Part shown: positions 34,136 to 50,537 of the stretch, one piece after another | How the letters are laid out: the number at the start of each line of letters is the position of its first letter | How positions within the stretch are numbered: the stretch's first letter is position 1 | Assembly: GCA_044225555.1 (NCBI GenBank) | Contig: JBGAIM010000006.1 | Span: 200,018 to 264,017, forward strand | From: Limisphaerales bacterium | Lineage (GTDB): Bacteria; Verrucomicrobiota; Verrucomicrobiia; Limisphaerales; JADLHS01 | DNA: 64,000 nt | Direction of reading: 5' to 3' | Program-made: the position numbers and the translations under genes | Notes under the pieces: generated by a model | Told to the model about the DNA's origin: nothing | Database searches by the model: none | Seen by the model: the letters and a program-made list of their open reading frames with translations, nothing else

Positions 34136-36202
34136 ATGATACGCACCCGACGTCCTGTTCTGGTTGGAATGCTGGCGCTCCTCGTTGCTGGTTGGGGCGG
34201 GCGTCTGGCCGCGGCCGATGTGACCGTGATGCTGCTCACCAACGCGGCGCAGGTGCGGGCGCTGTCGTTGGAGGCGGCCTCGCCGGGGCAGCCGGTGCAC
34301 CTGCGGGGTGTCGTGCTGTTTGAGGGGACGGACTCCTTGGTGTTGGCCGACGCAACGGCAGGCATCTATCTCCAGGCCACCAACCGCGAACTGGCGGGAT
34401 TCCAGATGGGCGATCTGTTGGCCGTGACGGGGAAGACGGACCCGGGGAAGTTCGCTCCCATCGTCAAAGTGAAAGCGGTCGAGAAAATCGGTCGCGGCAC
34501 CATCCCGAGCCCTCAGCGCGTGGCGTTTCCCGACTTGCAGATGGGCAGGCTGGATGCGCAGTGGATCGAGGTGACGGGGGTGGTGCGGCGTTCCGAGGCT
34601 TCAACGGAGGACGAGACCGCTTGGGGAGTTTGGATCGAAGTTGGTGGCGGACGGCTTCCGGTGCGTCTCCCGGCGGAGCAGGGGAAGTTGCTGGCGGTGG
34701 ACTCAGAGGTGCGGTTACGAGGGGTCTGCTTCTATCAATTCAACAAAGCCCGTCAGGCGGTGAGTCCGATGTTGCAGATTCCGCGGGGCGAACCGGTGAT
34801 TGTCACGCGCCCGGCCCCGGAACACCCGTTTGAAGCCCTCGAGCGTCCGGTAAGCAGCTTGTTGCAGTTCAGCCCCGAAGACCTTTTCAGCCATCGGGTC
34901 CGGGTGAGCGGCGTGGTGACTCACGCGGTCATGGGGGAAGGATTCTGGATTCGCAGCGGACCCGTGGGGCTGCGGGTGCGAAGTTTGCAGTCCCAGTTGC
35001 TGGCGGTGGGCGACCAGGTGACGGTGCTGGGCTTTCTCAGCCGCGGAGAATATTCGCCCGTGCTGGAGGATGCCATCTTTCGCAAGTTGGCCAAGCTGCG
35101 GCGGCCGGAACCGTTGTCGTTGTCCTCACCGCAAGAAGCGCTGGATCACGATCAAGAGCTGGTGCAACTCGAGGCCCAACTCGTGGAACAATGGCGGGTT
35201 CCGGATGGGTGTCGCGTCACCTTGCAAGCAGATGACAAAGGCTTCGTAGCTTGGTTGCGCTTGGAAGGACATCAAGCGGTGCCCCGGACCTGGGTGACCG
35301 GGAGCCGGGTACGCGTGGTGGGGATTTGCACCGTGACGGCCGGAGCCAAGGAGGGGACTGCGGCTGGCACGGTGGACCCAGGTTCCTTTCAAATCTTGTT
35401 GCGCTCGCCCTCGGACATGACCGTGCTACGGTCCCCGTCCTGGTGGACGGCGGAACACGTGGGATGGGTGACGGCCAGTGTCATGGGGTTGTTGCTGACC
35501 ATCGGGGGGCTGCTTTTTTGGATGCATCGCCGGCGGGTGGCGCGACAAATGGCGGAGATGAAAGCGCAAGCCGCCCTGGATGCCGAGCGGACGCGGATTG
35601 CCCGCGATTTGCATGATGAGATTGGAGCGAATCTGACCCACATTTCCATACTCAGCACATTGGCATCCCAAGCCATCAAGGCACAGCCAGAAAGCGCCCA
35701 GCAGCATAACGCGGAAGCGGCCAGCGTGGCGCAACAGACCATTCGCGCATTCGATGAAATCTTGTGGTCCGTTAATCCGAAGAACGACACCCTTTTGAGT
35801 TTGAGCCATTACATTTGTCGTTACGCAGAAGAGCTGTTGTCCCCGGCGGGGATTGCTCATCATTTTGACCTGGCGGAATCTTATCCCAATCTCTTGGTGC
35901 CACCCAATTGCCGTCATGGATTGCTTCTGGCAGTGAAGGAGGTGATCCACAACATCATCAAGCATGCCGCCGCCAAGAAGGTGCAAATCAAGTGCGCCAT
36001 GGAAACGGACCGGCTTTTCTTCGTGCGGGTAACTGACGATGGGCAGGGGATGGGATCGGCTGCGGGGGCCCCGGTTCCGAACCGGCGGCAAGGCCAAGGG
36101 TTGGAAAATCTCGCGCGCCGAATGTCCGAATTGGGCGGCGAGTGTTCGATTGAGAGCAAGCCCGGTCAGGGAACCGGCGTTACGCTCCGTTTGCCGTTAT
36201 GA
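34136..36202 (+). CDS. Sensor histidine kinase (HisKA_3/NarX-type) with a ~430-aa N-terminal sensor region
   Basis: Signal/TM, long extracytoplasmic region and a TM helix (WVTASVMGLLLTIGGLLFW). Then ERTRIARDLHDEIGANLTHI (H-box) and an HATPase region (VTDDGQGMG...GQGLENLARRMSELGG). Confidence 0.85.
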   Translation: MIRTRRPVLVGMLALLVAGWGGRLAAADVTVMLLTNAAQVRALSLEAASPGQPVHLRGVVLFEGTDSLVLADATAGIYLQATNRELAGFQMGDLLAVTGKTDPGKFAPIVKVKAVEKIGRGTIPSPQRVAFPDLQMGRLDAQWIEVTGVVRRSEASTEDETAWGVWIEVGGGRLPVRLPAEQGKLLAVDSEVRLRGVCFYQFNKARQAVSPMLQIPRGEPVIVTRPAPEHPFEALERPVSSLLQFSPEDLFSHRVRVSGVVTHAVMGEGFWIRSGPVGLRVRSLQSQLLAVGDQVTVLGFLSRGEYSPVLEDAIFRKLAKLRRPEPLSLSSPQEALDHDQELVQLEAQLVEQWRVPDGCRVTLQADDKGFVAWLRLEGHQAVPRTWVTGSRVRVVGICTVTAGAKEGTAAGTVDPGSFQILLRSPSDMTVLRSPSWWTAEHVGWVTASVMGLLLTIGGLLFWMHRRRVARQMAEMKAQAALDAERTRIARDLHDEIGANLTHISILSTLASQAIKAQPESAQQHNAEAASVAQQTIRAFDEILWSVNPKNDTLLSLSHYICRYAEELLSPAGIAHHFDLAESYPNLLVPPNCRHGLLLAVKEVIHNIIKHAAAKKVQIKCAMETDRLFFVRVTDDGQGMGSAAGAPVPNRRQGQGLENLARRMSELGGECSIESKPGQGTGVTLRLPL

Positions 36203-36858
36203 ATGCTGTCAAGGAATCAACAAAGAAAGTCCGCGTCGCTCTGGTGGAGGACAATTCGAAACTGCGCCGCAGTTTGACGGCGTTGTTGAACTCGGCCAAT
36301 GATTTGGAGTGCGTGGAGGCTTGTGCCGATGGGGAACAAGCCTTGCGGCAGCTTCCGACAGCCGCGCCGGAGATTGTTCTCATGGACATCCACTTGCCGG
36401 GCATCAGTGGGATCGAGTGCGTGGCGCGCCTGGCTGCCATCCTGCCGAAGGTTCGAATTGTGATGCTGACCGCGTTTGAAAGCAGCGAGGAGATTTTTGA
36501 TTCTCTGGCCGCCGGAGCGCACGGTTACCTGCTCAAGAGCACCTCCCCGGCCCAGTTGTTGGATTCCATCCGGGAGGTGGCCGCGGGCGGTTCACCGATT
36601 TCGGGGAGTGTGGCCAGGAAGATTGTGGATTTCTTCCGACATAAACCGCCGGTGCCGGACAGCGTGGACGCACTGGCGCCGCGAGAACGGGAAGTATTGC
36701 GGTTGCTGGCGGAGGGATGTCCCTACAAGGAAATCGCCAACACGATGCAAGTGTCGCTGGGCACTGTTCGCACCTATATTGAGCGAATCTACCAAAAGCT
36801 GCACGTTCACAGCCGCACAGAGGCAGTCGTAAAGTACTTCAAGCGATCTGCAGGTTGA
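36199..36858 (+). CDS. Response regulator, NarL/LuxR family
   Basis: REC domain (VALVEDN...VLMDIHLPGISG...VMLTAF) plus LuxR HTH (LAPREREVLRLLAEGCPYKEIANTMQVSLGTVRTYIERIYQKL). ATGA overlap with the kinase gene. Confidence 0.9.
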   Translation: MNAVKESTKKVRVALVEDNSKLRRSLTALLNSANDLECVEACADGEQALRQLPTAAPEIVLMDIHLPGISGIECVARLAAILPKVRIVMLTAFESSEEIFDSLAAGAHGYLLKSTSPAQLLDSIREVAAGGSPISGSVARKIVDFFRHKPPVPDSVDALAPREREVLRLLAEGCPYKEIANTMQVSLGTVRTYIERIYQKLHVHSRTEAVVKYFKRSAG

Positions 36859-37072
36859 TCTTGTTTTGGGGGCGGTCAGCAACTGCTGATTGCGAGCGGA
36901 AACATTTTCAGCCCGCCAGGAGGAGTCTGTTCGCGATTTCGGCGATGTCTGATGTTTGTCCGACATGACGGTTTTCGCTGCGCCCCCTAAGGTTGACGTC
37001 AAGCCCGGTCGATCACGCCGTCCGCCAGCATGTGGACGAAAATGAGCAGGCCGGCAAAACCGTTAGCAACCA

Positions 37073-38941
37073 ATGAAAACCCCAACCACAAAACCAAGCA
37101 AATACCTTGCAGTTCTCGCCGGAGTCGCGGTGGCGGTGAGCGCTCATGCCACCACTATTCCGCTCACCAATCCTTCATTCGAAGCGCCAGTCGTTGGCGC
37201 CTGGTCCTCGGGCTTTCTCCCGGACGGCTGGTCCTGGGATTACGGTAGCTACATTCAGACGCCCGGGGCACATCAAGGCAGCCAGGGCGTGTGCAATCTG
37301 GGCAGCGCGAACCAGTTTTACCGGCTTTCGCAAAACACGACGTACACCGTGGCCCACGCCAACGAAACCATCACCGGCAAGGTGTGGATTCGGGTCACCA
37401 ACCTCGAAAAGGGCAACTGCCACTTCCGCGTGGAACTGGTGCTGAACTCCGCCGGGGTGGTTACCAACACGTTCGCCGTCACCCCGGGAATGGTGACCGG
37501 ACAGACCTACGATTGGGCGGAGATTTCCGTGCAGTATGTCACCAGCGCCGGCGATGTTGGCAAGACGGTGGGCGTCGCCATTGGCGCCGACGGGGGGGAC
37601 AACTCGGACGGCTACAGTCCGAGTTATTGTTACATGGATGAAGTATCACTGGATACTGTGACGATTGGTGGTCCAACCGTGGTGGCCACCGCCTCGCCCA
37701 ACCCGGTGGCGCTCTTCTCGAACGTGCTGGTCTCGGCGACCGTAACGCCCGGCGCTAACCCAACGATTTCGTCGGTCGTGTTTAATGCCACCGCGCTTGG
37801 CGGGGGGAGTTCCGTCGCACTCGTTTCTGCGGGCGGCGGTGTCTATACAAATACGGTGGCCGCCTCGGCGCCGACCGGTCTGGACACGCCGTTGAACCTG
37901 CCGGTGACGGTGACGGATGGCAGCGCTCTCGTGGGGCAATTCACGGCTCAAGTGACGGTGAATCGTCCAGAGGTCCTCACTTGGGCTGGTGGGGTGGGTA
38001 ACTGGAACGACGCAAACTGGCTTCCCTACAACCTCACTGGCCCGTTGCAGGGACCGAATCGCACGGCGATCGTCACGAACGGGCAGGTTCTCGTAAACCA
38101 GCCAGGTGGTATCGGAGGCGGTGTTGCCATCATCCTGGAGGAGACCGGTACCATGCAGGTGCATAACGCCCACTATGGCGGGTATGGCAACATCCTGTTC
38201 TCGGGCGGCACGCTGGATATTTATGATGACTCGGCTTACCACGCATACGGGGCGTCGGTGCTCTCATCCCTCGTGGCTACCGGTGCCATTACTTCAACCA
38301 TCAGCAATTCCGGTGGAACGTGGTTTAATCTCAGCGATCCCGCATCCACTTTTGCGGTCAGCGATGGCGCCACCTTGAATGTGATGGCCACGTTGGCCGG
38401 GGCGGTGGCGTCAAACGATAATCTGTACAACCCCTCTGGGCTCACCAAAATTGGGGCTGGGACTCTGATTCTGTCCGGCACCAATACGTATGCGGGTACA
38501 ACCACCGTGGCTGAGGGTGCGTTGACGCTCGCCAGCTCCGGGGCGCTGCGGGCGAACACGACCCTGACGGTTGCCGGTGGCACAACGGTCAATCTGAATT
38601 ATTCCGGCACGCTCTCCCTTGGTGCACTGGTTCTGAACGGTGTTAGTCAGGCTGCAGGCACTTATGGAGCCACTGGTTCTGGTGCTGACCATATCAACAA
38701 CACGTTTTTCTCCGGCACTGGCGTCCTCGCGGTTGGGATTCGTCCGACCTTGAGCTACGTGAGATTGGGTGGAAGCCAGTTGCAGTTGTCTTGGACAGTC
38801 GCCGCCACACTACAAGTGCAGACCAACAGCTTGGCAACCGGGATTAGCTCCACGGGCTGGGTGGATCTGCCGGATGTGAGTCCAACGACTGTTACGATCG
38901 ACCCCGAGGCCGGTGGAGTGTTCTTCCGTTTGAAGCAGTAA
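37073..38941 (+). CDS. Secreted autotransporter-associated beta-strand repeat protein with an N-terminal jelly-roll-like domain and a C-terminal FFR module
   Basis: Signal peptide. NPSFEAP..W N-terminal domain. GLTKIGAGTLILSGTNTYAGTTTVAEGALTL repeats. Ends ...GGVFFRLKQ. Confidence 0.65.
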   Translation: MKTPTTKPSKYLAVLAGVAVAVSAHATTIPLTNPSFEAPVVGAWSSGFLPDGWSWDYGSYIQTPGAHQGSQGVCNLGSANQFYRLSQNTTYTVAHANETITGKVWIRVTNLEKGNCHFRVELVLNSAGVVTNTFAVTPGMVTGQTYDWAEISVQYVTSAGDVGKTVGVAIGADGGDNSDGYSPSYCYMDEVSLDTVTIGGPTVVATASPNPVALFSNVLVSATVTPGANPTISSVVFNATALGGGSSVALVSAGGGVYTNTVAASAPTGLDTPLNLPVTVTDGSALVGQFTAQVTVNRPEVLTWAGGVGNWNDANWLPYNLTGPLQGPNRTAIVTNGQVLVNQPGGIGGGVAIILEETGTMQVHNAHYGGYGNILFSGGTLDIYDDSAYHAYGASVLSSLVATGAITSTISNSGGTWFNLSDPASTFAVSDGATLNVMATLAGAVASNDNLYNPSGLTKIGAGTLILSGTNTYAGTTTVAEGALTLASSGALRANTTLTVAGGTTVNLNYSGTLSLGALVLNGVSQAAGTYGATGSGADHINNTFFSGTGVLAVGIRPTLSYVRLGGSQLQLSWTVAATLQVQTNSLATGISSTGWVDLPDVSPTTVTIDPEAGGVFFRLKQ

Positions 38942-38968
38942 GTAAGGTATGTGGGTAAGTGGAGTCAT

Positions 38969-39000
38969 GGGCGGGAGACACGTGGGTTTGTCTCCCGCCC
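38969..39000. terminator. Perfect 12-bp stem hairpin (no U-tract) after the 37073 gene
   Basis: GGGCGGGAGACA - CGTGGGTT - TGTCTCCCGCCC read directly. Confidence 0.45.
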
Positions 39001-39070
39001 CCTCGAACCCTCATGAAACTAGAAACCATTCCGAGTGATTCTCTGCGACTGCCGCCACCATAGATCTTCC

Positions 39071-39937
39071 ATGAAGGCCAAGACCTCTCCGCAAACGTTC
39101 CATCAGCCTGTAGCCTCCGGTTGCACGCTGGGCGGATTTACCCTGATTGAACTGCTCGTGGTGATCGCGATCATCGCCATTCTCGCGGCGTTGCTCTTGC
39201 CGGCCTTGAGCAAGGCGAAGAACAAGGCGCAGGGCTCGGTGTGCCTGAGCAATCAAAAGCAGATTATTCTGGCCTGGACCATGTATGCGGATGACAACCA
39301 AGGGCGGTTGGTGAATTTGCACACGCAACTGAACGCCAAAAACGAAACTCCGTGGCGCTGGATCAATCCTCCGGTTTCCCCGGTCACCTCCGGCTTGAAT
39401 GCGCAGGAAATCCTGATTGCCAGGTACAATGCAGGATTCGAGCAGGGAGCATTGGGGACCTACGGGAAAAATCCCAGCGTCATTCATTGTCCTGCGGATC
39501 CGCGCGGTAAACAAACCCCGGGCAACGGATTCGTTTGGGGCAGCCTCTCCGGGGTCGATGGTTTGAACGGCGAGTCCATGAGCGCCGTCGGCGGGATCAC
39601 CAAAGTCAGCCAGATTCGGCGCACCGCGGAGATTTACGTTTTCGTTGAGGAGAACGATCTGCGGGGGGAAAACGTAGGATCGTGGCAGTTCAACCTCCAA
39701 GGCACGCAGCCCACGTTCGCGGGATCGAAAATGGTGGATGCGCCCGGAATCTTCCATGCGACGAGCAGCACAATGTCGTATGCTGACGGCCATGCCTCCC
39801 AACACAAATGGGTCGATGCCAAGACATTCGCTTTCGCCAAGAAAGGTTCCGGCAGTGGGTCGCCTCCTGACGCGGCTGGTTCTCCCAGGGATATCCAGTG
39901 GCTGGCCAATGGTTGGGCAAGCACCACCAATCCGTAG
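39071..39937 (+). CDS. Prepilin-type N-terminal cleavage/methylation domain protein, H-X9-DG family
   Basis: [33 protein letters not shown] and [13 protein letters not shown]. The ATG at 39071 lies inside ORF 39035..39937. Confidence 0.8.
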
Positions 39938-39956
39938 CGGTCAGAAGAGAAATCAT

Positions 39957-42548
39957 ATGACGGAGCGATCCTGGCTTGCCTACCTCGTGGCTCGCCCCTC
40001 GTTGATTCTGCTGCCGTTGCTGCTGTCATGGATGGCTCCGGCGCAAACCTTGGGTCTTTTCAATGGCAACATGGAACTGCCTGTTGTGGTCGCATGGTCA
40101 ACGACGAAACCCTCTTCATGGACGTGGTCCGCGGGCAGCGGAGTGGGAGATGTGGGGCTGACCAGCACCGGCGGCGCGAATGGAAGTCAGCAGACGCTCT
40201 ACGGAAATCAACTGGCCGGAACACTGACGTCCGATGCCTCCATGGGAACAGTTCCCGGCGAGGGCGCGATTGTGCTTACCTATTACGCGAAGCGCGAGAA
40301 CAGTGGCACTTTCAATCTGACTGGAAGTGTTCTGGTCGGCGGGATTGTCGTCACATCACGCACGGATGTGTTGCAGACGACGACTTGGACGCAATACACG
40401 TTGAATTGTCCGGTCTCCGCTGCCGATGCTGGCAAATCCGTGCAGGCGCGTTTTGTGTTCTCCGGCAGCGGCGCTTGGCAGGGCTATCTGGACGAAGTCG
40501 GACTCGCATTTTCCAATTCCGCGCCGCAGGTGAGTTTTTCGGGCGGCGACCTGATTCAGGCGGAAACCAATTCCCAGGGACGAGTCAGTGTTTATTTGAG
40601 CCGGGCGGCGACGAACAGCGTCAGCGTCGGATATTTTCTCGCGGGCGGAACAGCTCAGGCGGGAACGGATTTCACGTTCACACCCGGCTTGCTGACATTT
40701 TCTCCGGGCGTGATCAGCAATAGCTTTGGCTTCACCGTGCTCGACAACTCCACGTATCAAGGCAGCAAAACCATTTTGTTCGGCATCAACAATCCGGCCA
40801 ATGCCACGCTCGGGTTAGTGACGACCCAATCGGTCATGATCGTCGATCCCGAGGAGCGTCCCGCGCCGCGAACGTTTTACGTGGATTCCGTCGCCGGTAG
40901 CGATGCGAACAGCGGGACGAACATCGCCGCGCCGTGGAAGTCGTTGGCGAAGTTGAATGCCACGACCTTTCGCACGGGCGACTCGATCCTGCTCAAGGCG
41001 GGCAGCACCTGGACCGGACAACTGCATCCGCTGGGTTCGGGAGATTACAACGGCCAGATCACGATCGATATGTATGGCAGCGGCGCGAAGCCGCGCATTG
41101 ACGGCGGCGGAATTTCCGGCGGCACATTCTATCTGCTCAACCAGCAATATTGGACGATCAACAATCTGGAGCTTTCCAATCTCGGCTCGACGAACATCGC
41201 CAAGAAGCAGGGTATGCTCATCAAGAACGATTGCGTGGGAACGTTGAACCGCATTTACGTTCGCAACTGCTACATCCAAGACGTGAATGGCGTCATGGAT
41301 AATTACATTGATGGCAAAGAAAGCGGCGGCATCGTTTTTTACGTCACCAGTTCCAACACCAACGTGCCTTCCAAGTGGAACGACCTCCGCATTGAGAACA
41401 ATGTCATCCGCGATGTCGTGCGGGAAGGCATCTTGCTGCAATCGCTTTGGGTGAACAAACCGCAAGACCCGAACACGTATTGGAGCAGTTGCGGGCCGTA
41501 TTATCCGAGCACCCAAGTCCGGATCGCCAGCAACATCCTCGAACGCATCGGCGGCGATGGCATCATTCCCTGGGCGGTGAACGGTGCGGTGGTGGAATAC
41601 AATTACGTCCGTCTATCCAATCTAAACAGCGTCGGGCAGGGTCACGCAGCGGTCTGGCCTTACATCTGCGAAAACATCGTGTTTCAGTTCAACGAGATTT
41701 GCGAGACGCAGACGCGCTTCGACGGCATGGCGCTGGATTTGGATCACAGCAACCAGAACTGCATCTACCAATACAATTACAGCCACGACAACCAGGGCGG
41801 ATTCCTGAACATGTGTTCCGGCGGCAACGCGAACAACAACATCGTGCGCTACAACATCAGCGAGAACGATGGTTGCGTCGCGGGCGGACGCGTGTTTCTC
41901 ATCTACGGTGCGGGCAATCACAATTACTCCGTCTATAACAACACCGTTTTTGTCCACAGCAACAACCCGCCGGTGTTTCAGGATGACGGCGGCGGCAGCG
42001 CCAGCAGCACGATCAACTTCTACAATAACATCATCATCAACATGGGCAGCGGCAGCATGAATGCGCCGGCTGGATGTTTCTTCGATCGCAATCTGTTCTT
42101 CGGCAACGGCGCGATTGCGTCCGACGCGAACAAGCTGCAAGTGAATCCACTGCTGGTCGCCGCGGGCAGCGGGTCGAACGGGCTGGCCTCGGTGGCGGGA
42201 TACAAGCTGGCGACGAATTCTCCGGCGTTGCGGACCGGTCGGATCATTCCCGACAACGGCGGTCGCGACTACTGGCAAAATCCCGTGCCCGCGGGCGTCG
42301 CTCCGAATCTCGGCGCGTATAACGGCATGGGCGTGCCCGAGATCACGAATCTGTTGTGGTCCGTCAGTGGAACGAATCTCGTGTTGAACTGGCCGCTGTA
42401 TCATGTGCTGCGGACGCAGACGAATCTTTTGCCGGTGGATGGTTCAAATGCCTGGCCGATTGTTCCCGGCTCGACGACCACCAATCGGATGGTCGTGCCG
42501 ATTGAACGTTCTGTGCCGGCCAGATTTTTTCGCGCCACGCAACCATGA
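39957..42548 (+). CDS. Secreted multidomain protein: jelly-roll-like N-domain, Calx-beta-like domain, right-handed parallel beta-helix, C-terminal FFR module
   Basis: Signal peptide. Calx-beta-like VSVGYFLAGGTAQAGTDFTFTPGLLTFSPG. Beta-helix repeats (NNVIRDVVREGILLQ, NYSHDNQGGFLNM, YNISENDG). Ends ...PARFFRATQP. ATG at 39957. Confidence 0.6.
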   Translation: MTERSWLAYLVARPSLILLPLLLSWMAPAQTLGLFNGNMELPVVVAWSTTKPSSWTWSAGSGVGDVGLTSTGGANGSQQTLYGNQLAGTLTSDASMGTVPGEGAIVLTYYAKRENSGTFNLTGSVLVGGIVVTSRTDVLQTTTWTQYTLNCPVSAADAGKSVQARFVFSGSGAWQGYLDEVGLAFSNSAPQVSFSGGDLIQAETNSQGRVSVYLSRAATNSVSVGYFLAGGTAQAGTDFTFTPGLLTFSPGVISNSFGFTVLDNSTYQGSKTILFGINNPANATLGLVTTQSVMIVDPEERPAPRTFYVDSVAGSDANSGTNIAAPWKSLAKLNATTFRTGDSILLKAGSTWTGQLHPLGSGDYNGQITIDMYGSGAKPRIDGGGISGGTFYLLNQQYWTINNLELSNLGSTNIAKKQGMLIKNDCVGTLNRIYVRNCYIQDVNGVMDNYIDGKESGGIVFYVTSSNTNVPSKWNDLRIENNVIRDVVREGILLQSLWVNKPQDPNTYWSSCGPYYPSTQVRIASNILERIGGDGIIPWAVNGAVVEYNYVRLSNLNSVGQGHAAVWPYICENIVFQFNEICETQTRFDGMALDLDHSNQNCIYQYNYSHDNQGGFLNMCSGGNANNNIVRYNISENDGCVAGGRVFLIYGAGNHNYSVYNNTVFVHSNNPPVFQDDGGGSASSTINFYNNIIINMGSGSMNAPAGCFFDRNLFFGNGAIASDANKLQVNPLLVAAGSGSNGLASVAGYKLATNSPALRTGRIIPDNGGRDYWQNPVPAGVAPNLGAYNGMGVPEITNLLWSVSGTNLVLNWPLYHVLRTQTNLLPVDGSNAWPIVPGSTTTNRMVVPIERSVPARFFRATQP

Positions 42549-42588
42549 GGACTCGTTTCGCATCGTTGCTGGCCTTGTTTGGTGAAAT

Positions 42589-45234
42589 TTGATTTTATTT
42601 TTTGTCATGCGGCGCTTTAGCTTACATCGGTTGCTTGGGTTTTTGATCATGGGACTCGGTCTTGTGGCGGTGCTGCCGCTGTCGGCTGGGTCGGCCCGCG
42701 TTGAACTCAATCTGAACCGCGATTGGAAATTCCAGCTCGGCGATCACGCGGGTGCGGCGGCGGTCAAGTTCGATGACGCCCAATGGTCGGCGGCGAATCT
42801 CCCGCATTCTTTCTCGATGCCTTACTTTGCGGCGACGGACAAATTCTATGTCGGCTACGGCTGGTATCGGCGCACGTTGGAAGTTCCTGCGAACTGGTCC
42901 GGCAAACGCGTTCATCTGGAGTTCGATGGCGTGTTTCAAGTCGCGGAAGTTTTTGTGAACGGCAAAAGCATCGGGGAACATCGCGGCGGTTACACCGGGT
43001 TCGCTTTCGACATCACCGACGCAGTGAAGACGGGAAAGAATCTGCTCGCTGTGCGCGTGAATAATTTGTGGGACGCCCAGCTCGCGCCGCGCGCAGGGGA
43101 ACACGCCTTCTCCGGCGGCATCTATCGCAACGTGCGCCTCGTCGTCACCGATCCGTTGCACGTCGCATGGTATGGAACGTTCGTCACCACGCCGCAGGTC
43201 TCGAAAGAATCCGCCACGGTGAACGTGAAGACGGAAGTCATCAACGCCGCGCGCGCGACCAAGCAGACGACGGTCAAAACCCGCATCCTGAACGCCGCCG
43301 GCGAATGCGTCGCGGAAATGAAGTCGGCGCAAACGCTCGCGGGAAATTCCACGAATGTCTTCGATCAGACGAGCGACGCGATCGCGAATCCGAAGTTGTG
43401 GTCGCCGGAGCAGCCAAATCTTTACACCGTGCAAACCATCGTCCTGGACGGCGACAAGGCCGTGGACGAATACACGTCGCCGCTCGGTTTCCGTTGGTTC
43501 AAGTTCACGGCGGATCAGGGCTTTTTCCTGAACGGCGAGCATCGTTATTTCAAAGGCGCGAATGTGCATCAAGATCACGCCGGTTGGGGCGATGCGGTCA
43601 CGGACAACGCGTTCCGTCGCGATGTGCAGATGGTTAAGGATGTCGGGATGGATTTCATCCGCGGCTCGCATTATCCGCACGCGCCGGCGTTCACCAAGGC
43701 GTGCGATGAACTCGGCATGTTGTTCTGGTCGGAGAATGCGTTCTGGGGCATCGGCGGTCACAAGGGCGACGGCTGGTGGAATTGCAGCGCGTATCCGACG
43801 AATGCCACGGACGAAGCCGGTTTCGAGGCGAGCGTGAAACAGCAGTTGCGCGAGATGATCCGCATCCATCGCAATCATCCGAGCATCATCGTCTGGAGCA
43901 TGAGCAACGAACCGTTCTTCAGCGACAATCGCGTGATGCCGCAAGTGCGCCGGTTTCTGAAAGACCTCGTCGCTTACTCGCGCGAACTCGATCCGACGCG
44001 CCCCGCGGCCATCGGTGGTTGTCAGCGCGGCGAGATTGATAAGCTCGGCGACATCGCTGGCTACAACGGCGATGGCGCGAGTTTGCCGGAATATCAAAAT
44101 CCCGGCGTGGCGAGCGTTGTGAGCGAATACGGTTCAACGATGGCGGATCGTCCCGGCAAATATGAAGCCGGTTGGGGCGAATTGCCGACCGCGCCCGGCG
44201 CGGACAAAGAGGTCGCGGGTTCATGGCGCATGCCGTGGCGCAGCGGCGAAGCGATCTGGTGCGCGTTCGATCACGGCAGCATCGCGGGTCGCCGATTTGG
44301 CGGCATGGGATTCGTGGATTACTTCCGGTTGCCCAAGCGCCAATGGTTTTGGTATCGCAACGAATACCTGAAGATTCCGCCGCCGGAATGGCCGAAAGCC
44401 GGCGTCGCCGCGGGACTGAAATTGACCGCCGACAAAACCAGACTCACGGCGATCGATGGCACGGACGACCTCCAACTCATCGTGACGGTGGTGGACAAAG
44501 ACGGCCAAGCATTGAACAACTGTCCGCCCGTGAAGCTCACCATCGAATCCGGTCCGGGCGAATTTCCGACTGGCCCAAGCATTCTCTTTGAAGCCAATTC
44601 CGACATCACGATTCGCGATGGGCAGGCGGCGATGGCTTTCCGTTCGTATCACGCGGGCAAGACCTTGATTCGCGCCACTTCACCGGGATTGCAGGATGCG
44701 ACCATTGAGATTGAATCGCTCGGCGAAACCAAGTTCATCACCGGCGTGACGCCGACGGTTCAACCGCGGCCGTATGAGCGGTTCGTCGCCGAAGACAAGG
44801 CCGGCACAACCATCACGGCTGGTCGCAACAACCCCACGCGCACGAGCAGCGAAACCGCCGCGCACAGCGGACGGCTCGCCAACGACGGTAATCCGGGAAC
44901 GTTCTGGCAGGCGGCGGCGAACGACAAGAATGCCTGGCTGCGGGTAGATCTGGAGAACGTCGTTTCCATCAGCAAAACCAAACTCGTGTTTCCGAGCGAA
45001 GGCAACTGGCGTTACAAGATCGAGGTCTCCGACAACGGCGAAAGCGATTGGAAACTGGTCGCCGACCAAAGCCGCACGGCCAGCACCGCGAAAGAGCGGA
45101 TGGACATCGCGAAAGAAGCCGCGCCGCGCGGACGCTTTCTGCGCGTGACGCTCATCGGTTCGCCCACCGGGAAAGTTCCCGCCGTGGCCGAAGTGGAAGC
45201 GACCGGCACGACCGGTCCGCTCGCGGCGCGCTGA
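42589..45234 (+). CDS. Glycoside hydrolase family 2 protein with C-terminal F5/8 type C (discoidin) domain
   Basis: LNRDWKFQLGD...WSAANLPHSF, GGYTGFAFDIT, RGSHYPHAP, WSMSNEPFF. The C-terminal NDGNPGTFWQAA...AWLRVDL is discoidin-like. The start may be the ATG at 42607. Confidence 0.8.
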   Translation: MILFFVMRRFSLHRLLGFLIMGLGLVAVLPLSAGSARVELNLNRDWKFQLGDHAGAAAVKFDDAQWSAANLPHSFSMPYFAATDKFYVGYGWYRRTLEVPANWSGKRVHLEFDGVFQVAEVFVNGKSIGEHRGGYTGFAFDITDAVKTGKNLLAVRVNNLWDAQLAPRAGEHAFSGGIYRNVRLVVTDPLHVAWYGTFVTTPQVSKESATVNVKTEVINAARATKQTTVKTRILNAAGECVAEMKSAQTLAGNSTNVFDQTSDAIANPKLWSPEQPNLYTVQTIVLDGDKAVDEYTSPLGFRWFKFTADQGFFLNGEHRYFKGANVHQDHAGWGDAVTDNAFRRDVQMVKDVGMDFIRGSHYPHAPAFTKACDELGMLFWSENAFWGIGGHKGDGWWNCSAYPTNATDEAGFEASVKQQLREMIRIHRNHPSIIVWSMSNEPFFSDNRVMPQVRRFLKDLVAYSRELDPTRPAAIGGCQRGEIDKLGDIAGYNGDGASLPEYQNPGVASVVSEYGSTMADRPGKYEAGWGELPTAPGADKEVAGSWRMPWRSGEAIWCAFDHGSIAGRRFGGMGFVDYFRLPKRQWFWYRNEYLKIPPPEWPKAGVAAGLKLTADKTRLTAIDGTDDLQLIVTVVDKDGQALNNCPPVKLTIESGPGEFPTGPSILFEANSDITIRDGQAAMAFRSYHAGKTLIRATSPGLQDATIEIESLGETKFITGVTPTVQPRPYERFVAEDKAGTTITAGRNNPTRTSSETAAHSGRLANDGNPGTFWQAAANDKNAWLRVDLENVVSISKTKLVFPSEGNWRYKIEVSDNGESDWKLVADQSRTASTAKERMDIAKEAAPRGRFLRVTLIGSPTGKVPAVAEVEATGTTGPLAAR

Positions 45235-45315
45235 ATCTTGTTCGTGCTGCTCGGCGCTCGACTTGGCTCAACTGGTGTTGGGCCAAATTGTTTTCACCTA
45301 TTGCAAACTGATCAC

Positions 45316-47721
45316 ATGACAAAATCGTTTTCGTTGCTGCTGTTGCTGGTTCAAATCGGAGCGGGCATTGCCTGCGCCGCCGCGGAGGCCGACGGCAATC
45401 AGCGCCTGTGGTATGAACAACCCGCGACCAAGTGGGAACAGGCGTTGCCCATCGGCAATGGTCGCTTGGGCGCGATGATCTACGGCCAGCCGCAACGCGA
45501 ACGGCTGCAACTGAACGACGTCACCATCTTGAGCGGCGGCCCGCAACCGGATGCGGATCGCAAGGAGGCTTACAAGAATCTGCCCGAACTCCGCCGCCTC
45601 ATCCGCGAAGGCAAATATGCGGAGGCGGAAAAATTCGCCAACGCCAACTTCAACGGCCCAGCGCCGTATCAGGCGTCGTATCAATTGTTGGGCGATTTGA
45701 ATTTTGAATTCCAACTGCCGGAGGGCGGCGTCACGAATTACTCGCGCTGGCTCGACATTGATTCCGCGATTTCGGGCGTCGAGTTCAGCGTTGGCAGCAG
45801 CAAGTTCCAGCGCGAACTGTTCGCCAGCGCGGCGGATCATGTCTTGGTGCAACGCCTTACCAGCAGCGCGAAAGGCGGATTGAATTTCACGATGCGCCTC
45901 ACGCGTCCGGCTTCCGCGCAAACGCGGTCGGTCGGCAATGACACGTTGGTGATGATCGGCAACACGGATATGCCGAAGCTGAAGGGGAATTGTGATTATC
46001 AGGCGAACGTGCGGATCGTGGTGCAGGACGGAAAAGTCAGCAGCGCCGGCGACGCGCTCAAAGTGGAGGGCGCAAGCGAGGCGTTGGTGTTGCTCACGTG
46101 CGGCACGTCTTACGTGCTGGATCACGCGCGAAATTATCGGGGCGCGAATCCGAACCTCGCCGCGCAACAACTTGAAGCCGCCGCCAAAAAGTCTTTTGTC
46201 CAACTGAAGCAGGCGCACGTGGCGGAGTATCAGAATTATTTTCGCCGCGTGAAGCTGGACCTGGGCACGAGCGCCGCCGCCAAGTTGCCTACCGACGTGC
46301 GGTTGAAGAATTATGGCGACGGCACGAAAGACCCGGCGTTTGCGGCGTTGTTCTATCAGTATGGCCGTTACCTGTTGATCTCTGCGAGTCGTCCGGAAAA
46401 TCCGTTGCCCGCGAATCTGCAAGGCATCTGGGGCGACGGACTCGAAATGCCTTGGCTGTGCGATTACCACGCGAACATCAACGTGCAGATGATTTATTGG
46501 CCGGCCGAGCAGGCGAACTTGAGCGAGATGCATCAGCCGTTGCTCAACCTGATCACCAATCTGGTCGCGCCCGGCGCGAAAACGGCGAAGGCTTATTTCG
46601 GGCCGGAGACGCCCGGTTGGGTGGTGGGCTACACCGTCAATGGTTGGGGCTGGACGAGTCCCGGCGAACGGCTCACGTGGGGCATCTGGTTCGGCGGGGC
46701 AGGATGGCTGAGCCAGCATTTGTGGGAACGCTACGCGTTCACCCAGGACCAAAATTATCTGCGCACGGTTTATCCGGCGATTCGCGGCGCAGCGGAATTC
46801 TGGCTGGCAACGTTGATTGAAGGTCCGGATGGAAAGCTGATTCCGTCGCCGACGTCATCGCCGGAGAATACTTTTCGCACCGACACGGGTGTGGTTTCGA
46901 GCATCACCGAAGGCGCAACGATGGAACGCGCCATCGCGTGGGACTCGCTCGATAAAGCCATTCGCGCCGCTGCCGCTCTCGGGGTGGATGCGGAACTCGC
47001 CGCAAAAATGAAAGCGGCGCGCGACCGGATTCGTCCCTTGCAGATCGGCAAAGCCGGGCAGCTCATGGAATGGAACGGCGATTGGGACATGAACGCGCCG
47101 GACATTCATCACCGGCATGCGTCGCATCTCTTCGCCTTGCATCCCGGCGATCAGATCCCGGCGCTGGGTTCGATAGAGTTGAAAAATGCCGCCCAGAAAT
47201 CACTGGAGATTCGCGGCGACGACGGAACGGGTTGGGCGATTGCGTGGAAAGAAAATCTCTGGGCGCGATTGGGCAACGGCGACCACGCGCATCATCTGTT
47301 GAGCAATCAACTGCGCTTCACCGAAGAGACGAAGATCGTCATGGAACACGCCGGTGGCACGTATCCGAATCTCTTCGATGCGCACCCGCCGTTCCAGCTT
47401 GATGGCAACATGGGCGCAGTCGCCGGCATGACCGAGATGCTTTTGCAAAGCCACGAGCGCTACACCGATCCTAAAACCGGCGCGGAAGCCTACGTCATCG
47501 ACCTGTTGCCCGCCTTGCCGAAAGCGTGGCCGAATGGTTCGGTCAAGGGCCTACGCGCGCGCGGCGGATTTGAGGTAGATATTGCATGGCAGAATGGTGG
47601 ATTAGCGACAGCCACGATCCGATCTCAAATGGGCAATGGAGCCAAATTGCGACACGGTCAGGAACTTCAGGCCATTCAGCTTGAAGTCGGGGCGGAGTAT
47701 CATTTCCAGCTCAAGAATTGA
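45316..47721 (+). CDS. Glycoside hydrolase family 95 (alpha-L-fucosidase type)
   Basis: [101 protein letters not shown]. Confidence 0.85.
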
Positions 47722-47752
47722 GCGCGTCCTTTCTCAAAATGCTAAACAACCT

Positions 47753-48577
47753 ATGAACCTAAATCCTTCTCAACCCAGCAAACAAGGCGCGTTCACCTTG
47801 ATTGAACTACTGGTCGTCATCGCTATCATCGCCATTCTGGCGGCGCTGTTGTTGCCGGCGCTAACCCGGGCAAAGCTCAAAGCCACACAGGCGGCTTGCC
47901 TGAGTAACCAGAAGCAAATGTCGATCGCGTTCAATTCCTATCCAATGGATAACGATGATAATATTGTGCCCTACGCCAATGGCGGCGGTTTCTGGACCGA
48001 CCCAGGCGGGTGGACCGGTGGTACGGTGGATCAAGGGTTTAGCGCCATTCAGGGCATTCTCAAAACAAACAATCCGCTTTATCAATATGCGCCCAATGTT
48101 GGTGTGTTTCATTGTCCCGGAGACGTCCGGTTCAAAAAATCAGCCTTTTCCCAAGGCTGGGCGTACGACAGTTACTCAAAGACACAGAATGTGGGGGGCG
48201 AGGCCTACGACAACTATTGGGGCGCGGGCGCGACCTTTAAGAAGGCCTCCACGGTGCAAAATCCGTCACAGACATTCGCCTTCATGGAGGATGCAGACGA
48301 ACGGAATCGAAACGTTGGGACCTGGGTGGTGCGGTGGGCAGTTGGCGGCAACACTTTTACCTGGGTTGACCCGCCGGCGATGTATCACGGCAACATCAGC
48401 ACCTGTGGTTTCGTGGATGGTCATGCGGAAGCGCACAAGTGGAAGAGCCCCGTCGTTATTGCGGCGGGACGCCGTGCTGCGGATGGCCAAAACCCCAACC
48501 TGAGCTCGCCGAGTTCCACAACCAAACCGGATAGCGAGTATGTCCGCGACAATTACCGGTTTCCTGGTTGGAAGTAG
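47753..48577 (+). CDS. Prepilin-type N-terminal cleavage/methylation domain protein, H-X9-DG family
   Basis: [33 protein letters not shown] and [13 protein letters not shown]. Paralog of 39071..39937. Confidence 0.8.
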
Positions 48578-48932
48578 CGGGTTGCACCGCTCGTCGCGCC
48601 TAAATGATTGTCTGTTGATTTTCAACCGAATTCCGCCAGGCCGATTCGGTAAGGATGGTGACATTGTCAAAGCGCAAACGAATCACTGCGTAGATAACCA
48701 GCAAAAAAGCCTGCCATTTGCCATTTGCCACTGTCGGCGAATTTGCCCTCGTGCCCGGTACCCCAGTCCCATCAAATACCGCCCAAAAACAGAACCCTGT
48801 TATTGGGGTAAGATGTTCATGCAACATGCAACTGATTCAGGTAACATTCCATTTAACTCTGCGGTGCTTGATATCCTTTTGCGAGTGCTGGATGTCGCGG
48901 ATATCACCGTGATTCAGATTTGCAGGTTAAAG

Positions 48933-49008
<76 letters not shown>

Positions 49009-49118
49009 AGGTAGTCGAAGGAGGCATATTCAACTTCTTCGAGCGACAGTTGGCAAGAATTTGCTGCGGCTTTTTTCGTGACACCGGGGTGCCGTTCCCT
49101 ACAATGCCCGCCCTCGAC

Positions 49119-49193
49119 GACCCTATGGTCTAGCGGTTAGGACACCTCCCTTTCACGGAGGTAGCCCGGGTTCGAGTCCCGGTAGGGTCGCCA
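49119..49193 (+). tRNA. tRNA-Glu (UUC), CCA encoded
   Basis: GACCCTATGGTCTAGCGGTTAGGACACCTCCCTTTCACGGAGGTAGCCCGGGTTCGAGTCCCGGTAGGGTCGCCA. Acceptor GACCCTA/TAGGGTC, anticodon stem CCTCC/GGAGG with loop CTTTCAC. Confidence 0.9.
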
Positions 49194-49214: not shown

Positions 49215-50537
49215 TTGCTCCAGCGTCGGATGTTTATGTCGCCCGCCATGCCAGGCCTGCTGCAAATCGCCCTGTTGTTGGCGGTGGCGGTTACCAGACT
49301 CAACGCCGCCATCATCGGCACTAATTCGCCCGCGTTGCCATTGACGGCGGAGCGGATTGCGGCTTTGCCCAAGCTGGAGCAAACGGAGTGGCTGGACTAT
49401 CTGGCCAGGTCGGAACAACAGGCGCGCGCGGACCGGGAGTTCTTTTGGAATGAAATGCGCCGCCTTGGGGTCATCGAGACCGCGTCGCCGCCGGTTGGGC
49501 GTGGCACGCGAGGACTGGCATTGGATCGTTCGAACGATTGGTATGCGTCGGCGGAGGCGTTACGGATTGCCGAGAACGTCGTGTCGTTTCAAACGCCGGC
49601 TGGTGGCTGGAGCAAGAATCTCGACCTGACGCAACATTCCCGAAGGCCGGGAGAACGGTTCGCCCAGGGGAACTTGTCGCGGTTTGCCAGCGCCACCGAT
49701 CTCGATCTGCCGCCCGATCCGAACTGGAATTACGTTGGCACGTTCGACAACGGCGCGACGACAACGCAACTGCGGTTTCTGGCGAAGGTGGCGGCAGCGC
49801 GCAACCCGGAACAGGGCGCGGCTTTCCGGAAGTCGTTCGCTCGCGGCATGGATTACGTCTTCGCGGCGCAATATCCGAACGGTGGGTGGCCGCAGGTGTG
49901 GCCTTTGCAAGGGGGCTATCATGACGCGGTGACGTTCAATGACAGCGCGATGACGGCCACGCTTGACCTGTTGTCAGACGTCGCTGCGGCGAAGCACGAT
50001 TTTGCTTTCGTGTCGCCCGCCGTTCGCGATCAGGCGGCGGTGAGTTTGAAACGCGGGCTGGCTTGTGTGCTGGCCACGCAGGTCCGCGTGGGGGGGAGAC
50101 CCACCGCCTGGTGTCAACAGTACGACATGTTGACGTTGCGCCCGACTTCCGCGCGCAATTACGAGATGCCGTCCTTGAGTTCCGGCGAAAGTGCCGGGGT
50201 CATGTTGTTCCTGATGCGCTGGCCGACGCCGGATTCAAATGTCGTTGCCGCAGTCCGAGCCGCGGCCGCGTGGTTCAGAAGCACGGAGATTCGGGACCAG
50301 GAATTTCGCCGGACCGATGATGGTCGCCAGCTGGTGGCCGCCCTGGGCACAGGTCCGATCTGGTCTCGCTACTACGAATGGGGAGTTAATCGTCCGATCT
50401 TTGGTGATCGCGATAAGAGTATCCACGACACGGTGAAGGAAATTTCCCGCGAACGACGCGATGGTTATGCGTGGTTCTCCGATGCGCCCGAGGCGGCCTT
50501 GAAACGGTTCTCGCGTTGGAATGAGATGAATCGTTGA
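49215..50537 (+). CDS. Pectate lyase, PL10 (PelA/Pel-15E) family
   Basis: NVVSFQTPAGGWSKN, TFDNGATTTQLRFLA, AQYPNGGWPQVWPLQGGYHDAVTFNDSAMT and WCQQYD match my recollection of the PL10 family. The start codon is uncertain. Confidence 0.75.
   Translation: MLQRRMFMSPAMPGLLQIALLLAVAVTRLNAAIIGTNSPALPLTAERIAALPKLEQTEWLDYLARSEQQARADREFFWNEMRRLGVIETASPPVGRGTRGLALDRSNDWYASAEALRIAENVVSFQTPAGGWSKNLDLTQHSRRPGERFAQGNLSRFASATDLDLPPDPNWNYVGTFDNGATTTQLRFLAKVAAARNPEQGAAFRKSFARGMDYVFAAQYPNGGWPQVWPLQGGYHDAVTFNDSAMTATLDLLSDVAAAKHDFAFVSPAVRDQAAVSLKRGLACVLATQVRVGGRPTAWCQQYDMLTLRPTSARNYEMPSLSSGESAGVMLFLMRWPTPDSNVVAAVRAAAAWFRSTEIRDQEFRRTDDGRQLVAALGTGPIWSRYYEWGVNRPIFGDRDKSIHDTVKEISRERRDGYAWFSDAPEAALKRFSRWNEMNR

Follow-up and report, generated by a model that had tools for sequence, protein, structure and literature searches.

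We analyzed a 64,000-nt stretch of a Limisphaerales genome, hereafter the window (contig JBGAIM010000006.1, positions 200,018–264,017; contig C33 in our set). The block at 34136–48577 lies on a single strand, with intergenic gaps of 3–129 nt, and its genes run in the order HisKA_3 kinase, NarL/GerE regulator, PATR protein, hx1, Calx-beta/GH136-like protein, GH2 with F5/8-C, GH95, and hx2. The original prediction had described a one-strand CAZyme block following a kinase/NarL pair, and a gene-by-gene check found every listed gene in place on the + strand. The features are as follows.

10797..11483, + strand: third H-X9-DG (HX) paralog, the 'metal island' copy, outside the glycan cluster (HX profile, E = 7e-56)
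34136..36202, + strand: sensor histidine kinase (HisKA_3 and HATPase_c, Pfam)
36199..36858, + strand: NarL/GerE-type response regulator (Response_reg and GerE; best NCBIfam match NarL, below cut-off)
37073..38941, + strand: PATR protein, 622 aa, Sec-exported (one PATR, autotransporter-associated beta-strand, repeat, E = 2e-9)
39071..39937, + strand: hx1, prepilin-like H-X9-DG protein, 288 aa (N_methyl/TIGR02532; sequence)
39957..42548, + strand: Calx-beta/GH136-like exported protein, 863 aa (Calx-beta, E = 5e-10; beta-helix region)
42589..45234, + strand: GH2 glycosidase (Glyco_hydro_2_N, Glyco_hydro_2, Glyco_hydro_2_C; F5_F8_type_C, discoidin, at residues 752–868)
45238..47721, + strand: GH95 alpha-L-fucosidase-family enzyme (Glyco_hydro_95_cat, PF22124, E = 9e-159; N- and C-terminal domains also matched)
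47753..48577, + strand: hx2, prepilin-like H-X9-DG protein, 274 aa, final gene of the block (N_methyl/TIGR02532; sequence)
48933..49193: divergent tRNA-Phe (− strand)/tRNA-Glu (+ strand) pair, 3' boundary of the block (ARAGORN)
49215..50537, + strand: Pec_lyase-family pectate lyase (PF09492, E = 2e-82; TIGR02474 above cut-off)

The kinase and response-regulator genes share 4 nt, the regulator gene starting ahead of the kinase stop. The kinase belongs to a 21-member family in all-vs-all clustering (f2375), the longer members of which carry Reg_prop/Y_Y_Y sensor domains, as observed in the paralog L023:1-3285; the first 480 aa of the window kinase gave no Pfam match. The tight spacing noted earlier was reproduced: the ATG of the Calx-beta gene (39957) lies 19 nt past the end of hx1 (39937), and that of hx2 (47753) lies 31 nt past the end of GH95 (47721). 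The beta-helix region of the Calx-beta protein resembles lacto-N-biosidase LnbX of GH136, by a partial match to NF047897 (77.6 bits vs a 2500-bit cut-off). The pectate lyase just past the tRNAs is probably a separate transcription unit.

The PATR and Calx-beta proteins end in the same Fn3-like C-terminal domain (CTD; ...GVFFRLKQ and ...ARFFRATQP, respectively), the former with a CTD profile match at G000:C33:238716-238955 and an AF2 model built for its last 88 aa, and the GH2 and GH95 proteins have no C-terminal tag. In this genome, 148–205 Sec-exported enzymes and adhesins, many of them otherwise unrelated to one another, carry the CTD at their extreme C-terminus. It is covered by neither Pfam nor NCBIfam, and Foldseek returned only weak Fn3-like matches. 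The T9SS C-terminal domain of Bacteroidota (Por_Secre_tail), likewise a small C-terminal beta-sandwich on many unrelated Sec-exported proteins, is an analogue without sequence relationship; a sorting role of the CTD is putative.

Both hx1 and hx2 carry the N_methyl/TIGR02532 prepilin motif, with the cleavage motif GG↓FTLIELL and Glu at +5 in hx1 and GA↓FTLIELL in hx2. They had been taken as members of TIGR04294/DUF1559 (PF07596, 'SBP_bac_10'), the proteins of Planctomycetota, Verrucomicrobiota and Lentisphaerae with a prepilin leader, a C-terminal H-X9-DG, 250–300 aa and dozens of paralogs (82 here). The H-X9-DG motif can be read by eye in a 12-residue C-terminal stretch of each protein (within 13 residues of the C-terminal part of hx2), but neither protein reached the TIGR04294 or PF07596 HMM, even at E ≤ 10. 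In the literature searched, H-X9-DG/DUF1559 proteins form the largest paralog group, with some members stress-regulated or essential (PMC10632474, PMC2754498). Identity between hx1 and hx2 is 36% over 250 aa, whereas the metal-island copy resembles either only through the N-terminal helix; the two are thus closer to each other than to that copy, as proposed. The shared CLSNQKQ is indeed present but marks no special likeness, because its C, N and Q are kept in 92–95% of all 82 paralogs.

HX proteins consist of a prepilin leader, a long alpha1 helix and a head of ~200 residues; in the AF2 model of hx2 (pLDDT 94.4), a helix at 16–66 is followed by the globular head. The best partial family matches were GspG, PilA and ComGC. 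GspG was the best in NCBIfam (~35 bits vs an 88.85-bit cut-off), and PDB 5wda matched over alpha1 (E = 4e-8). The HX proteins share with the T2SS major pseudopilin GspG/PulG the class III signal peptide, Glu+5 and the alpha1 helix, to which the match of the HX profile with solved pilins and GspG is confined. However, the HX head is twice as large and has no sequence or fold similarity to GspG/PulG, and the HX genes are scattered through exoprotein operons rather than placed in a gsp cluster. Neither Foldseek nor a profile search of the PDB found a solved relative of the predicted head.

We compared the neighborhoods of the HX genes across the genome. Catalytic CAZymes were enriched near them ~2-fold (p ~0.008; 1.8-fold without the window locus). 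The expected adjacency to CAZymes was therefore borne out in direction but small in size, and CTD-tagged exoproteins and kinases were much stronger partners. A CTD-tagged protein immediately adjoined 26 of 74 HX loci vs 5.1 expected (~5-fold, p ≤ 2e-4), whereas large untagged proteins were not enriched (30 vs 25.9). Same-strand CTD-tagged neighbors lay directly upstream in 18 cases and directly downstream in 11, mostly at −4 to 100 nt. Among the 21 Reg_prop/Y_Y_Y-family kinases, 10 had an HX gene within three genes, vs 1.8 expected (p ≤ 2e-4), and the link between HX genes and regulated clusters recurred at ~10 other kinase–regulator loci. HX genes were also found in non-glycan settings, namely the metal island and beside Ser/Thr kinases and PSCyt/PSD proteins. 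The heads of HX proteins did not co-diversify with the CTDs encoded next to them (Mantel r = 0.08, p = 0.07). HX and the CTD have largely non-overlapping phyletic ranges: HX was abundant in families f10 and f17, in which no CTD turned up, and several families that bear the CTD had no HX at E ≤ 1e-25. Since the distributions are mostly disjoint, a direct, obligatory HX–CTD interaction is unlikely.

Metagenome homologues of the hx genes lay in CAZyme clusters at 7 of 8 loci. One of these (L004) is truly syntenic with the window cluster, with hx1 55%, Calx-beta 65% and GH2 62% identical, and the pairing of HX with CTD proteins recurs in L002, L004–L007, G004 and G008. Homologues of hx2 form a dense set at 60–82% identity, those at 60–70% being labeled 'H-X9-DG protein' by JGI. 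hx2-type proteins of 60–68% identity adjoin differing enzyme sets, that is, GH43/GH67, GH31/GH9/GH3/GH2, or GH95/GH2, which speaks against the pilin head recognizing glycans in a substrate-specific way. The proposal of substrate-specific pseudopilus or fibre subunits is weakened by this finding. In another genome of the same order (G074), with at least 73 HX genes, CTD pairing was ~2-fold enriched (20/40 vs 11/40 regions), and the 40 sampled HX regions contained no seeded CAZyme and no Y_Y_Y kinase. The HX–CAZyme coupling is not universal across genomes.

In Verruconatronum alginivorum, a pulG-like pseudopilin with 67 paralogs (pgaptmp_000050) lies in an operon reported to be upregulated on alginate, and over-expression on this substrate was also seen for another pseudopilin; the authors, with a proteome of a single replicate per condition, suggest T2SS export of lyases (PMC13274419, 2026). 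By description, this multi-paralog pseudopilin in a Verrucomicrobium polysaccharide-degradation operon is like the hx genes, although the organism belongs to the order Opitutales and the enzymes are alginate lyases. That paper holds no analysis of pseudopilin role, genome-wide neighborhoods, kinases or the C-terminal domain.

The block is a glycan-degradation cluster under two-component control, and we tentatively read its hx genes as encoding locus-specific accessory (pseudo)pilins that aid exoprotein export or display. As subunits of the type-IV-filament class, hx1 and hx2 would be made together with the Sec-exported proteins of the cluster, cut by the single prepilin peptidase of the genome, and taken up by one of several T2SS/T4P-like machines; the genome encodes 5–6 secretins and ~7 GspE/PilB ATPases. 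The loaded machine might then carry the large exoproteins of the same cluster through the outer membrane or keep them attached to the cell surface. The main cargo would be proteins ending in the CTD, which in the window are the PATR and Calx-beta/GH136-like proteins. Pseudopilins dedicated to a particular cargo are not known as an established feature of T2SS biology, and some HX neighbors (Ser/Thr kinase-WD40 proteins, H+-PPase, PDH E1) do not look like cargo for secretion.

HX proteins could instead polymerize into substrate-specific glycan-binding surface fibres or pseudopili, possibly with retraction-driven import into the periplasm in place of SusC/SusD. Ruminococcus albus and Fibrobacter are known to have cellulose-binding proteins of the pilin family, and Planctomycetes have been proposed to take up polysaccharides with the help of fibres. 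HX genes do sit inside CAZyme clusters here, at the ~10 further loci and in most loci of relatives, and their heads are highly diversified (mean identity 21%). The window has no TonB-dependent receptor gene, as was originally stated, and the whole 6.5-Mb genome has only two Plug-domain genes (contigs C22 and C9), so another outer-membrane import route would be needed. We nevertheless consider such fibres unlikely, given the modest CAZyme enrichment, the sampled regions of G074 and the exchange of enzyme sets beside similar hx2-type heads. Moreover, the HX head resembles no solved carbohydrate-binding module or lectin, and the lectin-like domains LamG, F5/8-C and CBM6 were found on neighboring CTD proteins, not on HX.

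It is quite improbable that HX proteins are inner-membrane-anchored, non-filament proteins whose periplasmic heads bind a ligand or metal, for example as co-sensors of the kinases or as binding proteins feeding transporters. The kinase link in this genome, the Ser/Thr kinase-WD40 proteins that make up 3 of 10 annotated HX neighbors in G074, and the copy in the metal-handling island would fit such a role. A polar site (H212, D222-G-H224, N52, Q55, D66) and a Cys49–Cys121 pair, conserved across all paralogs, might just as well bind a ligand or metal and serve a different function. The Pfam name of the related DUF1559 is 'SBP_bac_10', called a solute-binding family in a Rhodopirellula paper (PMC2754498), but PF07596 matches neither hx protein and Foldseek found no periplasmic-binding-protein fold. 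Kinase proximity is also expected if the kinases just regulate HX-containing operons, and the leader and Glu+5 are features required for filament assembly. Very unlikely, in our view, is adjacency without a specific mechanism, with fast-duplicating mobile paralogs piling up in accessory exoprotein-rich regions and the window a chance placement. No single paralogous family dominates the neighbors, 28 of 74 loci lack all three partner types in their vicinity, some neighbors are housekeeping genes, and the V. alginivorum paper (PMC13274419) infers that the pseudopilin gene was transferred several times and duplicated many times. Against chance stand the tight same-strand spacing, in the window and genome-wide, the hx1/Calx-beta/GH2 trio conserved in another organism, the preference for CTD-tagged over other large proteins, the 5-fold kinase association and the reported alginate induction of a pseudopilin operon in a cultured relative.

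The suggestion of a PVC counterpart of a PUL holds in part: the link between HX and regulated CAZymes is real, recurrent and kept in relatives, but the CAZyme enrichment is small. As in the PULs of Bacteroidota, a dedicated sensor accompanies the clustered CAZymes, the Reg_prop/Y_Y_Y module is found in the paralogous kinases, and lectin-like surface proteins are co-encoded. PULs have a SusC/SusD pair and Y_Y_Y hybrid two-component sensors, whereas the window has no such pair and a classical kinase with a separate GerE regulator; the position of the marker pair is filled by a pilin-like gene and CTD-tagged exoproteins. In a lineage almost without TonB-dependent transporters, the recurrent HX–CAZyme link makes 'PUL-like module without SusC/D' a fair description of the architecture. 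The partnership of HX with exported proteins and kinases points to a helper of secretion or surface display more than to a sugar-capturing fibre, and a generic helper would explain better than a glycan-specific receptor why the same hx2-type head stands beside unrelated enzyme sets.

The glycan-degradation block of the window lies on one strand, downstream of a histidine kinase/NarL-type regulator pair, and all of the genes originally predicted for it were recovered by ORF listing and Pfam/NCBIfam searches. It contains two prepilin-like genes, hx1 and hx2, of the H-X9-DG paralog family (HX).

Genes of the block, with the evidence for each
34136-36202, + strand: sensor kinase, HisKA_3/HATPase_c (ORF listing, Pfam/NCBIfam)
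36199-36858, + strand: regulator, Response_reg and GerE (ORF listing, Pfam/NCBIfam)
37073-38941, + strand: 622-aa protein with one PATR repeat (ORF listing, Pfam/NCBIfam)
39071-39937, + strand: hx1, from ATG (ORF listing, Pfam/NCBIfam)
39957-42548, + strand: 863-aa Calx-beta protein with a partial LnbX/GH136-like beta-helix match (Pfam/NCBIfam)
42589-45234, + strand: GH2 with a C-terminal F5/8-C domain (Pfam/NCBIfam)
45238-47721, + strand: GH95 (E = 9e-159)
47753-48577, + strand: hx2, from ATG (ORF listing, Pfam/NCBIfam)

The predicted spacings of 19 nt between hx1 and the Calx-beta gene and 31 nt between GH95 and hx2 were exact, and the remaining intergenic gaps in the block are 129, 40 and 3 nt. 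The block ends at a divergent tRNA-Phe/tRNA-Glu pair, with a Pec_lyase-family pectate lyase beyond. As had been claimed, no SusC/SusD or TonB-dependent receptor was found among the block products with Pfam/NCBIfam. The block agrees with a broad, functional definition of a polysaccharide utilization locus (PUL), that is, co-localized CAZymes with a dedicated sensor and regulator: the kinase-regulator pair is followed at short gaps by GH136-like, GH2 and GH95 genes, which may be co-regulated. It does not agree with the Bacteroidota definition, which calls for an adjacent susC-like TonB-dependent transporter gene and a susD-like gene. The suggestion of a possible PVC counterpart of a PUL is supported as architecture: the module is PUL-like, contains pilin-like genes and lacks SusC/D. 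Scanning the block for promoters and terminators gave counts equal to those of shuffled sequences and was uninformative. No CTD (the C-terminal domain described below) or recognizable domain was found in the minus-strand frames read of a candidate gene remnant after hx2 (48578-48935). Further on, a 184-aa pilin-like ORF (52792-53346, - strand) with a weaker match to the HX profile (E = 1.6e-21) adjoins a receiver-domain gene.

Both hx1 and hx2 carry the prepilin cleavage/methylation motif (PF07963 and TIGR02532 above cut-off), with G/A|FTLIELL and Glu+5 readable, and a 12-residue His-X9-Asp-Gly segment near the C-terminus. TIGR04294, a model of only 22 positions with a cut-off of 19 bits, matched neither of them in hmmscan even at E <= 10; in a six-frame search of the whole genome only eight places passed, so that this short model misses most of the 82 paralogs. 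Neither gene matched PF07596 (DUF1559/SBP_bac_10) at E <= 10, and a precomputed PF07596 match was present in a few homologues (P0013, P0094, P0185, P0233). Because hx1 and hx2 fall below both models, their membership rests on the motif, the family size and the JGI naming of 60-70%-identical homologues. NCBI assigns the hx homologues to Verrucomicrobia. The two proteins do not qualify as GspG: their scores of 32-35 bits stay below the TIGR01710 cut-off of 88.85, the alignment is confined to the N-terminal 55-72 residues, and the head matched solved GspG neither in fold nor in sequence. They are 36% identical and, as predicted, closer to each other than to the third copy in the metal island of the window (10797-11483), which was matched only via the helix. 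The motif CLSNQKQ is indeed common to both, but it is a family-wide signature rather than a mark of the pair, its C, N and Q being present in 92-95% of the 82 paralogs.

The predicted huge paralogous family was confirmed. When every ORF of the 6.5-Mb assembly was searched with an iterated profile, 82 full-length HX paralogs in 74 loci were recovered, and at least 73 HX genes were found in a genome of the same order and another family (G074). Conservation among the 82 paralogs is 97% for H212, 95% for D222 and 87% for G223, and the residues conserved across the paralogs as a whole are Cys49, Cys121, N52, Q55, Y63, D66, P122, H212 and D222-G-H224; Cys49 and Cys121 plausibly form a disulfide that binds the helix to the head. 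The predicted model of hx2, from a 100-sequence alignment, has a pilin-type helix (residues 16-66) followed by an alpha/beta head (pLDDT 94.4, pTM 0.87). Foldseek of this model against the PDB gave nothing at E <= 0.001, with resemblance to pilins only in alpha1, and a profile search of PDB sequences likewise found no relative of the head, only alpha1 matching pilins and GspG. The genome encodes one prepilin peptidase, at C22:335309-335929, 5-6 secretins and approximately seven GspE/PilB-class ATPases. Genes for such machinery are present, and hx1 and hx2 may be processed and assembled as filament subunits. A 2368-aa "HX fusion" was rejected as merely a hydrophobic-helix match. Tandem arrays of four HX genes occur at C12:7998-11535 and in G074 at L091, the latter together with a CTD protein; instead of supplying single accessory subunits, such tandems may correspond to minor-pilin-like sets.

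Reading of the termini revealed that most large neighbours of HX end in [FY][FY]R[LAVT]xx(P). A regular expression for this tag matched 186 proteins of the genome (median length 842 aa), compared with nine when the pattern was placed 25 residues further upstream as a control. It forms the final strand of a conserved domain, approximately 70 aa long (CTD), C-terminal copies of which were found by profile in 148 proteins. Regex and profile matches together make up 205 proteins, and by a crude test 143 of these have N-termini resembling signal peptides. Ten CTD segments matched no family in Pfam/NCBIfam. The domain is predicted to be a five-strand beta-sandwich (pLDDT 77), for which Foldseek gave weak Fn3-like matches only. 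In the window, two copies flank hx1: that of the PATR protein (38609-38938, ending GVFFRLKQ) and that of the Calx-beta protein (42216-42545, ending ARFFRATQP). The window GH2 and GH95 have no CTD tag.

Neighbourhood statistics were calculated from our own gene calls, with permuted HX positions as the null. A CTD protein was directly adjacent at 26 of the 74 HX loci (5.1 expected) and within three genes at 39 (14.2 expected; p <= 2e-4 for both), whereas large untagged proteins beside HX were not enriched (30 vs 25.9, p = 0.19). The pairs are mainly close and on the same strand, with the CTD protein upstream in 18 and downstream in 11. Most of the tagged neighbours resemble lectins or adhesins (LamG_3, Ig, PATR, Calx-beta, F5/8-C), and a few are enzymes, for example CE8 and an alginate lyase. 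Co-diversification of HX and CTD was not significant in a Mantel test (r = 0.08, p = 0.07), nor did the HX head correlate with the body of the partner protein.

All-vs-all clustering yielded one family of 21 kinases that includes the window kinase. Its long members consist of Reg_prop, Y_Y_Y and HisKA_3 domains, and a GerE regulator follows each kinase. The window kinase itself (688 aa) has no Pfam-recognized sensor domain in its first ~480 aa (34136-35580), in contrast to its ~1000-aa paralogs that carry Reg_prop/Y_Y_Y. An HX gene lies within three genes of 10 of the 21 kinases (1.8 expected, p <= 2e-4), and the window order of kinase, regulator, variable protein, HX and large protein is repeated exactly at four loci. 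No single paralogous neighbour family stood out within one gene of HX; only the kinase family emerged, within three. According to Pfam annotation the kinases flank CAZymes at most of their 21 loci. Eight kinase-HX loci were annotated by Pfam.

Carbohydrate systems at the annotated kinase-HX loci
PATR, HX, GH106, GH28, GH27/GH43
GH97, HX, LamG, NPCBM-GH27
CBM48-like protein, HX, HX, with GH13
HX with CE2
HX with GH3 and two PF10091 glucoamylase-like enzymes
HX near GDSL esterase and GH31; a second HX, then a LamG protein

The association with catalytic CAZymes was weaker. At least 70 glycoside hydrolase, lyase and esterase genes were identified in the genome, along with 15 sulfatases. Using 85 CAZyme genes, whose families were drawn from annotated loci of relatives, from the window and from Pfam searches of the whole genome (GH29, GH28, GH78, GH27, sulfatase), we found one within three genes at 12 of the 74 HX loci (5.6 expected, p = 0.008) and within five genes at 16 (8.1 expected, p = 0.005); the absolute fractions are lower bounds, because the list is incomplete. 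Excluding the window's own locus, the ratio was ~1.8 (p = 0.02-0.04). The genome-wide enrichment proposed as a check therefore exists, at about 2-fold, but is only modest. Another set (set B) gave 4.8-fold enrichment, a figure not relied on because its families were ascertained beside HX genes. The subfamily of hx1 and hx2 was slightly more kinase- and CAZyme-linked than other paralogs, which was not clearly significant. Two enzyme matches, to GH29 and to GH78, are each divided between two adjacent open frames (C27:7249-8113 and C27:380619-381573), possibly frameshifts or pseudogenes; the split GH29 is located in the cluster of the closest paralog of hx2.

In relatives, eight homologues were inspected on long metagenomic contigs with precomputed Pfam annotation, and seven of them have CAZymes around them. 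The hx2-type proteins (62-68% identical) lie beside GH43/GH67, GH31/GH9/GH3/GH2/GH5 or GH2/GH51/GH5/GH39/PL9, often with Y_Y_Y kinase/GerE pairs; the same kind of HX head thus serves clusters with different substrates. The locus of an hx1 homologue (P0130, in L004) encodes a GerE regulator, PATR-CTD, HX, HX, a GH101-like protein, GH2 with F5/8-C, and Calx-beta-CTD. Identities to the window are 65% for Calx-beta, 62% for GH2 and 55% for hx1, and this orthologous cluster indicates that the hx1/Calx-beta/GH2 association is conserved.

Across 61 genomes of the phylum, the CTD profile matched 30 and the HX profile (E <= 1e-25) 20, coinciding only in the window genome (G000), G004, G008 and G026; in families f10 and f17, which are HX-rich, CTD was not found. 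An obligatory HX-CTD pair was dropped because these distributions are largely complementary. In G074, CTD proteins were present in 20 of 40 HX regions vs 11 of 40 random regions (Fisher p = 0.07; rank test p = 0.02), and neither a Y_Y_Y-type kinase nor a seeded CAZyme was found in the 40 HX or 40 random regions. Ten upstream HX neighbours there include a GH-like enzyme, FGE-sulfatase/BNR, CBM6 and LamG proteins, PSCyt/PSD and one housekeeping enzyme. The ten also include three Ser/Thr kinase-WD40 proteins, which lie directly upstream of HX on the same strand (L076:3761-7870, L083:4444-7680, L084:4634-7834), and in the window genome a Ser/Thr kinase follows HX at L025:5702-8158. Ser/Thr kinases are a second kind of signalling protein recurring beside HX. 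Together with the Mantel result, these limits indicate that HX is at family level neither glycan-specific nor tied to CTD; what HX genes have in common is that they lie near exported proteins and signalling kinases.

A literature search on H-X9-DG and DUF1559 returned almost nothing functional, with the exception of the 2026 description of Verruconatronum alginivorum (PMC13274419). In this bacterium, a pulG-like pseudopilin with 67 paralogs belongs to an operon that is reported, from single-replicate proteomes, to be upregulated on alginate. Another pseudopilin was also over-expressed on this substrate, and the authors suggest that the lyases are exported by a T2SS. No generalization of that case was found in the literature. 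Our case is a variation on two known themes, H-X9-DG proteins and regulated CAZyme clusters, and has this one published precedent.

The neighbours of HX rank as exported CTD proteins and kinases (~5-fold enriched) ahead of catalytic CAZymes (~2-fold). We tentatively favour, at somewhat less than even chances, that HX proteins are accessory pseudopilins which help to export or display the exoproteins encoded with them, a reading close to the T2SS suggestion for V. alginivorum. That they are fibres for glycan binding or uptake fits the CAZyme clusters of the metagenomic relatives, but the neighbourhood data do not favour the capture or import role originally proposed, and we regard it as unlikely. 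Non-polymerized periplasmic binding proteins or co-sensors would suit the recurrent kinases, and the prepilin motifs less well; we consider this quite unlikely. The least probable of these four explanations, chance accumulation of a very large family, has to face the excess over permuted positions.

A more far-reaching model, which we hold to be very improbable as a whole, joins HX pilins, CTD lectins or enzymes and Reg_prop/Y_Y_Y kinases into a modular PUL-like surface system of Verrucomicrobia. Exoproteins would be carried or docked on an induced fibre by the truncated Fn3-like tails that they bear, in the manner of a pilus-borne enzyme scaffold; by extending and retracting, the substrate-induced fibre would bring glycans through a secretin; and SusC/SusD would be replaced in a lineage that has hardly any TonB-dependent transporters. 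The 6.5-Mb genome has only two Plug-domain genes (C22:112608-112937 and C9:4327-4614).

In Planctomycetota, Verrucomicrobiota and Lentisphaerae, few paralogous families are as large as those of the H-X9-DG/DUF1559 proteins, which have no function assigned. The present results bear on how abundant glycan degraders without SusC/D-type systems secrete their enzymes and import the products. The window locus and approximately ten sister loci provide a concrete, testable unit of sensor kinase, regulator, CTD-tagged exoprotein, pilin-like gene and hydrolases. If the export or display reading is true, operon-specific pseudopilins would be described here for the first time, and regulated exoprotein loci of Verrucomicrobia could be recognized by HX as a genomic marker.
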